The notes under the pieces are model-generated. The model was not told the DNA's origin. It searched no databases and was given only the letters and a program-made list of their open reading frames with translations. Position numbers and translations under genes: made by a program. A stretch of 64,000 nucleotides of DNA from Escherichia coli (GTDB lineage Bacteria > Pseudomonadota > Gammaproteobacteria > Enterobacterales > Enterobacteriaceae): the NCBI RefSeq assembly GCF_022846255.1, contig NZ_AP025682.1; one strand, written 5' to 3'. Position 1 is the stretch's first letter. Each line of letters starts with the position of its first letter. Positions 43,213-46,475 of this stretch are shown in pieces.

Positions 43213-43347
43213 ATGAAAGACAATATACTGACGTTCCTCACGGAGCTGAAAACTCCGTGCCGGACAACAGAAATTGCCATACATTTTGGGCTGAGTGCCT
43301 ATCAGGCCAGATATTACCTGATGACTCTCGAAAAGGAGGGAATGTAG
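43213..43347 (+). pseudogene. afaF: PapI/AfaF-family regulator, truncated after codon 44 by IS insertion
   Basis: MKDNILTFLTELKTPCRTTEIAIHFGLSAYQARYYLMTLEKEGM followed by TAG that lies inside the IS terminal repeat; PapI-like proteins are ~70-77 aa. Confidence 0.65.
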
Positions 43348-43350
43348 TGG

Positions 43351-44118
43351 TCAAGTAATACTGGCCACGGTTTTACAGTAAAAATGGTACCTGTTCTCGG
43401 ACTCTTCCGGAGTCAACCCACCGTTATAATGGTGAGGTCTGACACTGTTGTAGTAGTTCAATATGTAATCATTAATTTGCTGCCGGGCCTCGTCCTTGTC
43501 GACGTAACCATTCGCTGGCACCCATTCTGTTTTCAGACTGCGGAAGAAGCGTTCCATTGGGCTATTATCCCAGCAGTTTCCCCGCCGACTGACACTTTGC
43601 TTTATTCTGTAACGCCAGAGAATTTGTTGATATTTCAGGCCTGTATACTGGCTTCCCTGGTCGCTATGGAACATAACATCATGTGGTTGACCACGCGTCT
43701 CATAGGCCATCCGCAGGGCATCGCTTATCAGTGCAGTATCGGCATGTGCGGACAGACTCCAGCCGATAACCCTGCGGACAAAAAGATCCATCACAACCGC
43801 CAGATAGCACCAGCAATTTCCGGCCCAGATATAGGTAATATCTCCACACCATACCTGGTCTGGCTCGGGGACAGCGAACTGGCGCCCGAGCAGATTCGGC
43901 AAGCAGGTATGCTCCTGACGGGCATTTTTGTACTGATGTTTTCCGGGCTGACAACTGCTCAGATTCAGATGTTTCATCAGCCGCCCGGCACGGTAACGGC
44001 TCATCGGGACGCCGTTTTGGGTCAGCATGTCAGCCAGCATGCGCGCCCCCGCAGAGCCCCGGCTTTGGTTCCACACCCGGCGTATTTCACTGCACAACCT
44101 GACATGCACCGGATTCAC
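43351..44118 (-). CDS. IS3-family transposase OrfB (DDE integrase domain), normally expressed by -1 frameshift from OrfA
   Basis: 255-aa ORF with DDE core (WCGDITYIW ... HSDQGSQY ... [12 protein letters not shown]). Confidence 0.8.
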
Positions 44119-44216
44119 CGTATCGCGTCGTTTTTGCCAGTACCGGTAACTGCTGCGGTGTATTCCCAGAGCAGAACACAGACTGACAACGGTGTGGCTG
44201 CCACTGAGTCTGGCAA

Positions 44217-44564
44217 CTATCGTGAACCGTTCAGCGAGTCGGACATCAAGAGTGCAGTAGCCTTTTTTAATATCGTATTTTGTTCCTCCAGGTGGCGAAC
44301 CTGCTTTTCCAGCTCGCGGATACGTTGCTGGTCTGGAGTAATCGGTGTGGCAGAGGGGGCAATCCCCTGGCGCTCTCGTCTGAGCTGACGTACCCAGCTC
44401 TCAAGAGTGGTAGAGCCGACATTCATCGATTCACTGGCTTGTCGATATGAGTAGCCCTTATCAACAATCAGTTGCGCACATTCCAGTCTGAACTCGGGGG
44501 TGAAAGTACGTTTGGTTTTCTTGTTCATTAAGTCACCTGTTTTGTGTTGAGGAGAGAATATCAC
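44217..44564 (-). CDS. IS3-family transposase OrfA (HTH)
   Basis: 115-aa [58 protein letters not shown]...[18 protein letters not shown], close to IS911 OrfA as I recall it. Confidence 0.8.
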
Positions 44565-44764
44565 CTTTAATCAGGTGGCCAAACTTACTGTGCCACTACA
44601 GTATTGGACTTGAAGCCCGCAGAGGAAATGAGGTGTGAGTCAGCGAATTACATAGAGGCTCGCAGCTTTATGGCTGCAATAAAGCCGGATATAAAGCTGC
44701 AACCTATCCGTCAATGTCAAAACAATGGATTCCTTGCAAACGGATGCGTTCATATAAGGTCATC

Positions 44765-45256
44765 ATGCATTCGGAAAATATTGCGGCTTACGTCGGGCTG
44801 GATGTGCATAAAGAAACGTTGGCGGTTGCTATTGCTGTACCTGAACGGCTTGGCGAAGTTCGTTATTATGGTACGATTAACAACGAAGCCTAGGCTGTAC
44901 GTCGATTATTTCAGAAATTGCAGGGACTTTACGGAAACACTCTTTCCTGCTATGAGGCTGGCCCCTGTGGTTTTGGGCTATATCATCAACTCACAGCGAT
45001 GAATATAAAATGCCAGGTTATTGCCCCTTCCCGGATACCAAAATCACCGACAGACAGAATCAAAAATGATCATCGGGACGCAATTTCTCTCGCCAGGTTA
45101 CTGCGGGCTGGAGAACTTACCCCTGTCTGGATCCCTGAGCTGACTCATGAAGCTATGCGGGATCTAATCAGAGCCCGTGCAGCAGCTAAACGAGACAGCA
45201 GAGTTGCCCGACAGCGAATTCTGAGCATGCTATTGCGAACAGACAAACTTGCCTAA
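44765..45256 (+). pseudogene. IS110-family transposase N-terminal remnant (internal stop, truncated)
   Basis: MHSENIAAYVGLDVHKETLAVAIAVPERLGEVRYYGTINNEA then TAG at ~44891, continuing out of frame as ...CYEAGPCGFGLYHQLTAMNIKCQVIAPSRIP...; ends at the IS630-like element. Confidence 0.5.
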
Positions 45257-45317
45257 GGCCTCATACTCTTCCTGGCTCTGGATGCCATCGGTGATATTTC
45301 TTAATGCACCAATCACC

Positions 45318-46475
45318 CTAAATAACTGCTCCTAATATCGCTACACTTTAGCCAGCCCATGTTTCCCACCGGGGAATGGGCTAACGGTATCCATAAAGTG
45401 ACGAACCTTTTTCAACAGTTGCCACATTAAACGGCACTGGTGATTTCGGGTTATTGTCTCATGAAGCGCCTGCCACAACCGTTCCACATGATTGACCCAC
45501 GGTGAGTAAACCGGCTGATAAATGACCCTGAACTTCGGGTTTGCTTTCAGCCAGCGCAACGTTTCACGGCTTTTGTGGATGATGTAGTTATCGACAATGA
45601 GCGTAATCGTTTTTGCCCGCCGGTGTGTCGCCTTCATATATTTTAACAGACTGATAAATAAGGACGAACCTTTACTGTTTCCACCAACGTAGCTGACTTT
45701 TCCCGTACCGCTGTGCAGCGCACCGGCGAGATAGTACTTTTCATTCTGGCCCGGCGTGACCACGCGCTTTTGCTGCCCACGTAGCTGCCAGTCTGCGCCA
45801 GTTTTGGGATTGAGGTGAATATCCACTTCATCTTCGTAAAACACGGGGTTTTCCGCACTGCATTTCGCCAGTGCTTCATGGATAGCGACCATTTTTTCTT
45901 CTTTGTGTGGGTCACGGATACGCAGTGTCGGCGCGGCTCTGCGCCATACCAGTCCGGCTGCAGGTAACCACCGCCGGATGGTTGAAGCATATAGTGGACA
46001 ACCGGTGACCTCACGGATTTTTATCGCCAGCAGTTCAGTACTCCAGCGGGAACGCTGATAACCGAAATCACCGGGAGAATGCTTAATAAGCTCACGCAGC
46101 AATGTGCAAATATGTTCGAACGGCCAGCGTCTCCCACGTCCTGACGGTAATGACTTCAGGCCTTCAGCACCGGACAGCGTGAACCAGTTAATCCAGCGAC
46201 CAATCGATGAGCGGGCACAGCAGAGCGTTCTGGCAACATGACAGACGGTGTCACCACGATGCAGCATCAGTATGGCGGTGAGCCGGCGGGCGTGGTTTTT
46301 GTCCTTTGTTTTATGGGTAGTTTTCTGCATCAGGCGTCGTTCGGTTCTGGGTATTGGTGCTATGATCGGCATTGCTCAGTCCGGCTGGTGATTTGGGATA
46401 TTCAGCGATTGATCAGATCGCATAAACCGGACTGAGTTCCCCCTGAGTGATCTACTATTCCGAGCAGTTATTTAG
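45318..46475 (-). mobile_element. IS630-family insertion sequence, ~1.16 kb
   Basis: 14-bp perfect terminal inverted repeats CTAAATAACTGCTC / GAGCAGTTATTTAG flanked by TA; single 343-aa transposase inside. Confidence 0.75.
45341..46372 (-). CDS. IS630-family transposase (DDE)
   Basis: 343-aa ORF with N-terminal HTH and C-terminal DDE region; size matches IS630 transposases. Confidence 0.75.
   Translation of the reverse strand: MPIIAPIPRTERRLMQKTTHKTKDKNHARRLTAILMLHRGDTVCHVARTLCCARSSIGRWINWFTLSGAEGLKSLPSGRGRRWPFEHICTLLRELIKHSPGDFGYQRSRWSTELLAIKIREVTGCPLYASTIRRWLPAAGLVWRRAAPTLRIRDPHKEEKMVAIHEALAKCSAENPVFYEDEVDIHLNPKTGADWQLRGQQKRVVTPGQNEKYYLAGALHSGTGKVSYVGGNSKGSSLFISLLKYMKATHRRAKTITLIVDNYIIHKSRETLRWLKANPKFRVIYQPVYSPWVNHVERLWQALHETITRNHQCRLMWQLLKKVRHFMDTVSPFPGGKHGLAKV

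Follow-up and report, generated by a model that had tools for sequence, protein, structure and literature searches.

A probable IS3-linked deletion within a layered insertion-sequence scar between a fimbrial operon and nanXY in an Escherichia coli island

Deletions that leave an insertion sequence (IS) with unmatched flanks are textbook events. Here we describe a run of IS elements at positions 43343-46475 of a 64,000-nucleotide stretch of Escherichia coli contig NZ_AP025682.1 (assembly GCF_022846255.1), which as a whole is called the window below. An IS3-family element with unmatched flanks stands there beside fragments of two IS110-family elements, ISEc66-like and ISEc45, and beside an IS630-family element. 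Among the closest described systems, ISEc11 is 1433-1443 bp long, encodes a transposase of 339 amino acids (aa) and has a downstream non-coding region that encodes a seekRNA, and its target is short and linear (PMC11187229). A seekRNA or bridge RNA encoded 3' of the transposase gene characterizes the IS1111-type layout (PMC11187229, PMC12288879). ISEc21 targets the transposase genes of IS3-family elements, and IS4321 and IS5075 target the terminal repeats of the Tn21 family (PMC11187229, PMC12288879). Every component of our interval belongs to a described IS family, and in this sense the feature is ordinary and already known. Taken as a whole, the interval is very probably a layered scar left by successive mobile-element events.

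The flanks of the IS3-family element were compared with those of other copies of the same IS. The compared loci are labelled L001 (strain 200177), L002 (KE26), L003-L007 (full ISEc66-like copies), L008 (CFT073), L011 (CU42ET-1), L012 (GCA_005387485.1), L015-L017 (metagenome contigs), L018-L023 (other copies of the IS3 element) and L024 (empty site in yhdW). A preliminary description of this DNA had reported no obvious 3-bp target duplication at the IS911-like element, and our reading bore this out. The window reads ...GGAGGGAA to the left of the IS and GTATTGGAC... to its right, that is GAA versus GTA, with no repeat of 2-5 bp. At four independent other sites the same IS has duplicated its target (GTA in L019/L020, CAG in L021, CAG at a different site in L022/L023, and GGGC in L018). 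A target duplication of 3-4 bp is a property of this IS as a type, from which the window copy departs. Because the other copies carry such direct repeats, the missing one is meaningful, and its absence is a rearrangement signature and no argument against membership of the IS3 family. Matching duplications were looked for at both ends of the IS3 element and were not found. Only the IS630-family element has one (TA), and that element is thus a simple insertion.

The two triplets belong to two different loci, because each is native at its own locus. The left flank of the IS3 element is codon 44 of a FaeA/PapI-family fimbrial regulator gene (PapI-like gene), to which GAA is native (L001 reads GGAGGGAAAG). 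GTA on the right is native to the right end of the ISEc66-like element (metagenome contig L017 reads GATGTATTGG / CTGAATGATGTATTGGGC). It could be argued that the IS3 element inserted simply into a pre-existing junction of the PapI-like gene and the ISEc66-like end, whose IS-free joint would read GGAGGGAATTGGAC, and that a 3-bp duplication later decayed by point mutation. GAA and GTA differ at one base, so that two of the three flanking bases match, and old insertions may lose their duplications. However, each triplet is explained by its own locus and no duplication is needed. The IS copy is also fully intact and 99.6% identical to other copies, hence young, and a separate, unexplained deletion would be required whose joint fell exactly at the later landing site of the IS. 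We consider a decayed duplication highly improbable.

The comparison with related islands that the preliminary description had called for was run with E. coli 200177, the closest complete genome, which is collinear with the window on both sides. Window 42000-43342 corresponds to L001 5201-6542 and window 44757-48000 to L001 6961-10204, in the same orientation and with 99.3-99.6% identity. Between these matches L001 has 418 bp, and the window has 43343-44756, that is the IS3 element and the ISEc66-like piece. The 418 bp consist of the 3' end of the PapI-like gene, a spacer, a C-terminal fragment of an IS66 transposase (Pfam DDE_Tnp_IS66_C) and the 54-bp left end of ISEc45. Neither the missing 418 bp nor another IS3 copy turned up in a search of the 64-kb window. 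An inversion was considered and rejected on these grounds, together with the agreement of both flanks with 200177 in order and orientation. Because the flanks are co-oriented and DNA is missing between them, the event would be a deletion, and because both novel joints coincide with IS termini, the IS3 element would be its agent. From these alignments we are fairly confident that the IS3 junctions are best explained by an IS3-associated deletion of about 1.7 kb. The earlier suggestion of an IS-mediated deletion or rearrangement in place of a simple insertion agrees well with the unmatched flanks from unrelated sequences, the collinearity with 200177 and the absence of the intervening DNA.

Of the DNA removed by the deletion, 418 bp would be host sequence and about 1.28 kb would come from the ISEc66-like element. 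The PapI-like gene would have lost its last 19 codons, and the IS66 fragment and the 54-bp left end of ISEc45 would have gone with them, as would the greater part of the ISEc66-like element with its transposase gene. Two mechanisms may be proposed. One is homologous recombination between two direct IS3 copies, one lying in the PapI-like gene and the other in the right end of the ISEc66-like element. The junctions of an IS3 copy in the PapI-like gene with a GAA duplication would read GGAGGGAA + TGTAGTGGTC and ...CCACTACA + GAAAGATAAAACG. Those of a copy with a GTA duplication in an ISEc66-like right end that is intact apart from this insertion would read CTGAATGATGTA + TGTAGTGG and CCACTACA + GTATTGGAC. 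The other mechanism is a transposase-mediated adjacent deletion from a single IS3 copy. Either would leave one intact IS with unmatched flanks.

Several points weigh against the deletion reading. The sequence appears to fit both mechanisms alike. A full ISEc66-like copy inside ISEc45, whose left-end junction would read TTCCAGAGGA(A/G) + ATGTAATGAACGC, was never observed, and the size of the deletion is therefore deduced. Among 5,426 complete E. coli genomes none carried either IS3 junction or the ISEc66-to-ISEc45 junction, and no intermediate was seen.

The arrangement itself, with a 44-aa open reading frame and both IS3 junctions, was found again in GCA_005387485.1, GCA_005387665.1 and the Logan assembly of DRR102837. 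Copies of an IS are a classic cause of misassembly, and this IS is present in several copies per genome, so contigs might in principle have been misjoined through the repeat. Against such an artefact, the junctions on both sides are identical in two independent assemblies from NCBI and a third from a Logan read set, and in two of the cases a single contig contains the complete IS together with its left and right flanks (L012, 10.4 kb at 99.98%; L013, 4 kb at 100%). A misassembly is hardly credible in view of these contigs.

The 156 bp to the right of the IS3 element match, at 90-92%, the region 3' of 340-aa IS110-family transposases, some of which are named ISEc66-family by the NCBI pipeline. 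Because of this identity to annotated copies, the piece is best regarded as an ISEc66-like variant with its own guide segments. It retains a left-target guide-like segment, CAGAGGAAAT, and a subterminal repeat, GGATGCGTTCAT, and it has neither the transposase gene nor the 5' half of the guide stem-loop. No ISEc66 transposase sequence was found anywhere in the window, where the right-end remnant alone survives. The preliminary description had recognized one IS110-family remnant here; ISEc45 is indeed such a remnant, and the ISEc66-like right end has to be separated from it as a second fragment. The 156 bp were also considered as the own left end of an ISEc45 variant, which would then read ...GCGTTCATATAAGGTCATCATG. 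This was rejected, because intact ISEc45 has a different 54-bp end and the 156 bp match ISEc66-family 3' ends.

Five full ISEc66-like copies (L003-L007) were examined. They are 1429-1440 bp long and have a 340-aa transposase, about 275 bp of non-coding sequence after the stop codon and subterminal inverted repeats (ATGAACGCATCCC / GGGATGCGTTCAT) near the ends, which is the IS1111-type layout. The right-hand subterminal repeat and 156 bp of the non-coding region are what the window retains of it. The element ends were defined by comparing the empty site in yhdW (L024), CACAGG-AA-GCATTATG, with the occupied site in L005. The element reads ATGTAATGAAC...GTTCATATA, with AA at both joints. In all the full copies examined (5/5) the insertion falls between an AGG resembling a Shine-Dalgarno sequence and the start codon (ATG) of a host gene. 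The copies come from E. coli chromosomes, from a prophage and from a plasmid, and among the host genes are yhdW, a DUF4942 gene and a phage tail gene. The window junction, GTTCATATA-AG-GTCATCATG, lies at the equivalent point of the ISEc45 initiation region, CCAGAGG-AG-GTCATCATG.

The 3' non-coding region contains two short variable segments, which flank a conserved hairpin (GGGCTTGAAGCCC) and track the insertion flanks. The comparison covered six insertion sites and four distinct variants of the non-coding region. The downstream segment is identical to the left flank (GCAGTAAAT in L003, ACAGGAAAT in L005 and L007, TGAGGAAAT in L006, and AGAGGAAAT in the window and L017). The upstream segment equals the reverse complement of the right flank, as ATAATCGAT does in L004 at 9/9 bases, and the L017 segment ATGATG(TA) corresponds to CATCAT of ISEc45. 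In the window, CAGAGGA matches CCAGAGGAG of ISEc45. The ISEc45 target that carries both the CAGAGGA and the CATCAT halves reads CCAGAGGAGGTCATCATG. The consensus fold of the copies places the variable segments in the internal loop of a conserved stem, and in this predicted form the loop resembles a target-binding loop. Direct reading of the sequence further showed that the segments ATTACAT and ATATAAAG match the IS ends. From these matches we infer that ISEc66-like insertion may be guide-directed, in the manner of a seekRNA or bridge RNA. Two results limit this reading: the guide-to-target matches are imperfect (6-9 of 8-10 bases, from the six sites and four variants), and an Rfam search of the window remnant and one full ISEc66-like copy returned no bridge-RNA or seekRNA family. 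The remnant in the window would be dead, because the upstream guide-like segment is interrupted at the IS3 joint and no transposase gene is left.

The same ISEc66-to-ISEc45 junction is present in the metagenome contigs L015-L017, which form one locus family and have the ISEc66-like part truncated at 253 bp. The 156 bp of the window are identical to L017 at 155/156 positions. The ISEc45 part of these contigs is truncated at 45143 and differs from the window at about 14/387 positions (about 3.6%; ~96% identity), whereas the ISEc45 part of the window is about 99% identical to that of 200177, which has no ISEc66 piece. Because the ISEc45 backgrounds differ, two insertions explain the shared junction better than descent from a common ancestor or a conversion tract whose end would lie no more than about 27 bp from the junction. 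The ISEc66-like hits in the two lineages were likely independent.

These data also bear on the possibility of an exchange in place of a local deletion. Recombination within IS3, or within ISEc45/IS630, with another island, a plasmid or incoming DNA could have imported the segment with the ISEc66 remnant, through IS-mediated replacement or resolution of a cointegrate. The occurrence of the ISEc66-to-ISEc45 junction in unrelated contexts with a nearly identical ISEc66 part is in line with such an import, as is the lack of local intermediates among complete E. coli genomes, and IS-rich islands are mosaic. However, the ISEc45 remnant, the qatA joint, IS630 and nanXY are collinear with 200177 at 99.4-99.6% right up to the ISEc66 junction. 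The other loci that bear this junction differ in their ISEc45 sequence and truncation point, and for an import a crossover no more than about 27 bp away from the junction would be required. We judge an exchange to be unlikely and keep to the IS3-associated deletion. As for the remnant itself, we put forward only tentatively, as a reading somewhat short of an even chance, that it records an RNA-guided ISEc66-like element whose guides were set against the translation-initiation region of ISEc45 (CCAGAGG-AG-GTCATCATG), with recurrent independent hits, and which may belong to a sub-family aiming at ribosome-binding sites. If true, this would be a programmable IS sub-family that cuts genes, a rival transposase gene among them, off from their translation signals.

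ISEc45 is represented by about its 5' third. This piece starts in the Shine-Dalgarno/ATG region (ATG at 44765), stops near codon 161 of 377 and lacks the first 54 bp of the left end. In intact ISEc45 these 54 bp (TAGATGATATGACC...CCAGAGG, boundary taken from four copies) lie 5' of AGGTCATCATG, which opens at window 44757. The NCBIfam IS110 model gave a partial match of 78.8 bits, which is under the cutoff of 140 because only about 161/377 codons remain. The window remnant carries a nonsense codon (CAG-to-TAG) at 44891-44893 and appears to be dead. In 200177 (near L001 7270), a +1 A frameshift is found in an A-run of ISEc45. To judge from these changes, the ISEc45 remnant is decaying independently in sister lineages.

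ISEc45 itself lies within another IS. In CFT073 (L008 6161-9201) an intact ISEc45 splits tnpC of IS66, and ISEc45 occupies one identical position of an IS66-family tnpC in three unrelated strains (CFT073; 200177, L001 6696-6960; CU42ET-1, L011 4269-4508). By this comparison, ISEc45 is a site-specific insertion into another IS. Together with the ISEc66-like junction this gives a three-deep nesting, ISEc66-like inside ISEc45 inside IS66.

The preliminary description had placed the three elements back to back. All of them are present where it had put them, and what it missed besides the ISEc66-like fragment is a remnant of qatA between ISEc45 and the upstream region of nanX. The gene qatA encodes a KAP-family P-loop NTPase of the Qat anti-phage system and is intact within qatDCBA in strain S88. 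The window holds only 120 bp of it and no functional Qat system. Because S88 has an intact qatDCBA at the homologous sequence, a Qat locus would once have lain next to the island, and this defence locus appears to be erased down to the 120 bp. Homology to S88 qatA stops at 46522, and the native upstream region of nanX begins at 46547; no source was found for the 24 bp in between. More than 1100 E. coli genomes (>1100) match the window only from 46547 onward.

The qatA remnant is split by the IS630-family element. The preliminary description had called this element intact-looking, and its 343-aa transposase, a single DDE_3 transposase, scored 245 bits with the NCBIfam IS630 model (cutoff 100). 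The end at 46475 given there was not confirmed, since the element ends at 46472 and the rest are flanking bases. The terminal inverted repeats are 20 nucleotides long and match at 18/20 positions. TA flanks the element at 45319-20 and 46473-74. In S88 the unoccupied site is CCCCC-TA-GAAAGC, and its TA is precisely the overlap of the two flanks in the window. The IS630 element is a simple insertion, because it has a clean TA duplication and a matching empty site in S88. The NCBI pipeline gave it no specific name.

The joint of ISEc45 to qatA (45248/45249) and the IS630 insertion are common to 200177 and CU42ET-1 (L011). Because they are shared with these strains, the insertion and truncation of ISEc45 and the insertion of IS630 are older than the IS3 event. 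The order of events can be proposed on this basis, with the first five steps drawn from genome comparison. At first an IS66-family element lay beside the PapI-like gene. ISEc45 then inserted site-specifically into its tnpC, and was later cut at about nucleotide 484 of the transposase gene and joined to an internal piece of qatA. In the fourth step the IS630 element inserted into the qatA piece at TA, which was duplicated, and in the fifth the qatA remnant was joined to the upstream region of nanX. In the lineage of the window, an ISEc66-like element would subsequently have inserted into the Shine-Dalgarno-to-ATG spacer of ISEc45. The IS3-associated deletion described above would be the seventh and last step.

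The IS3 element has all the features of an intact member of its family. Its 26-nucleotide terminal inverted repeats (43343-43368 and 44575-44600) are 77% complementary and end in TG...CA. The fused OrfAB frame is open over 392 aa, with an A6G-type site for -1 programmed frameshifting, and OrfB scored 275 bits with the NCBIfam IS3 transposase model (cutoff 160). Full-length copies with 99.2-99.6% identity were found in other genomes, by which both ends were confirmed. The NCBI annotation pipeline flagged 99% identical copies as having a programmed frameshift and labelled them only 'IS3 family transposase', with no specific IS name. Both the IS3 and the IS630 elements look transposition-competent from their sequences.

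The Rfam family isrC (RF01387, 'Hfq-binding sRNA') matches 44410-44532 on the minus strand, in the 5' part of the IS3 orfA, over its full family length with 135 bits. It seems that the isrC family coincides with the leader and orfA segment of an IS3-family transposase gene. A hammerhead HH9 match at 43302-43375 (26.8 bits versus a gathering score of 52) was dismissed as a chance hit, being below threshold and straddling the junction of the PapI-like gene and the IS3 element. Another 99% identical IS3 copy, in E. coli KE26 (L002 6007-7264), also has no duplication (AAG versus TTC) and abuts a truncated LuxR-family gene in a pap/cnf1 island. This IS3 element seems to be repeatedly involved in island rearrangements.

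The truncated PapI-like product is identical at 43/43 aa to the intact 62-aa protein of strain 200177, and its Pfam FaeA match covers profile positions 1-44 of 62. The exact 44-aa truncated product is also encoded in GCA_005387485.1, GCA_005387665.1 and DRR102837. The regulator is probably inactive in the lineage of the window. Through the truncation, this lineage may also differ in the phase-variable expression of its adhesin. The same PapI-like gene is found in strain MS 124-1, there within an island that adjoins a tRNA-Phe gene and an integrase gene, beside speC/yqgA.

The interval belongs to a pheV-type E. coli island and is flanked on the left by an afa/pap-like fimbrial operon and on the right by nanXY (Table 1). 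At about 50000-53350 of the window, 3' of nanY, gene calls on L012 include CdiI-like, ShlB and POTRA fragments; these resemble leftovers of systems for two-partner secretion or contact-dependent inhibition. A further transposase gene with an rve domain is found 3' of these fragments. The secretion-type fragments and this transposase gene suggest further IS-linked decay in the cargo region.

Table 1. Positions of the features in and around the interval (window coordinates)
Feature	Position	Strand	Basis or remark
Usher gene	38724-41312		left-hand fimbrial operon
Chaperone gene	41480-42247		left-hand fimbrial operon
PapB-family regulator gene	42325-42726		left-hand fimbrial operon
Truncated FaeA/PapI-family fimbrial regulator gene	43213-43347	+	43/62 native codons, then Met and stop from the IS3 end
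Intact IS3-family (IS911-like) insertion sequence, 1258 bp	43343-44600	-	inverted repeats, open OrfAB, profile score, full-length copies elsewhere
IS3 element OrfA	start 44528 (or GTG at 44564)	-	
IS3 element A6G (AAAAAAG) frameshift site	44268-44262	-	
IS3 element OrfB	end 43351	-	
ISEc66-like IS1111-type (IS110 family) right end, last 156 bp, 3' non-coding	44601-44756	+	90-92% to annotated family
ISEc45 (IS110 family) 5' remnant	44757-45248	+	98.8-99.0% over 492 bp to annotated ISEc45 (KE26, CFT073)
qatA remnant part 1	45249-45320	-	97% to S88 qatA; last two bases are the IS630 TA target
Intact IS630-family insertion sequence, 1152 bp	45321-46472	-	profile score, inverted repeats, empty site
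IS630 transposase gene, 343 aa	46372-45341	-	
qatA remnant part 2	46473-46522	-	96% to S88 qatA, contiguous with part 1 there; opens with duplicated TA
Joint of 24 bp between qatA remnant and nanX upstream region	46523-46546		
Sialic-acid genes nanX, nanY	from about 47028		right of interval

The main use of these results is the correct annotation of this island. They also provide a worked example in which comparison with an empty site separates a simple insertion (IS630, TA duplication) from an IS-linked deletion (IS3, unmatched flanks). The IS3-family and IS630-family copies are apparently active and could drive further rearrangement. The covariation seen in ISEc66-like copies could supply natural pairs of targets and guides for work on IS1111-type seekRNAs.

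The IS3 element of the window is close to IS911 in its organization. The termini closely resemble each other (window element TGTAGTGGCACAGTAAGTTTGGCCACCTGA, IS911 TGAAGTGGCACACTGAATTTGGCCACCTGA) and have TG...CA ends in both, and the window element also has orfA and orfB, the A6G -1 frameshift site and the conserved 15-residue motif. Duplications of 3 bp are made by both, which for the window element is seen in other copies of the same IS, and the window copy differs in having none. IS911 is 1250 bp long, against 1258 bp here. Compared with IS911B of K-12, the window element has only 67-73% nucleotide and 43-71% aa identity, and because of this it is not IS911. The iso-form criterion of ISfinder is about 95% aa or 90% nucleotide identity, so near-identity to IS911 is out of reach. 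Judged by these values, the element is a different IS of the group to which IS911 belongs (IS3 family, IS3 group). The name IS911-like in the preliminary description was thus well chosen, as long as it is not taken to mean IS911 itself. The second complete element agrees with the IS630 family in its duplicated TA target, single 343-aa DDE transposase, short inverted repeats and length of 1152 bp, and differs in being only 78% identical to the IS630-family copy of CFT073.

The ISEc66-like copies share with ISEc11 their size, subterminal inverted repeats and downstream non-coding region, as well as site-specific insertion without a true duplication. The target of ISEc11 is GTGAAAATACTG (PMC11187229), whereas the ISEc66-like copies occupy Shine-Dalgarno-to-ATG spacers of the form (C)ANAGG-AR-GNNWT, and the window differs further in holding the last 156 bp only. 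In the searches made, the literature on ISEc66 and ISEc45 amounted to resistome or mobilome listings with no mechanistic data, and a pairing of an ISEc66-like element with ISEc45 was not found described there. ISEc21 and IS4321/IS5075 are likewise IS110/IS1111-family elements with a specific target inside another mobile element. The difference here is that the target is the spacer between the ribosome-binding site and the ATG of the transposase gene of another IS110-family element. In conclusion, the ISEc66-like element in the initiation region of ISEc45 appears to be a new instance of known behaviour, in a pairing that appears to be undescribed.

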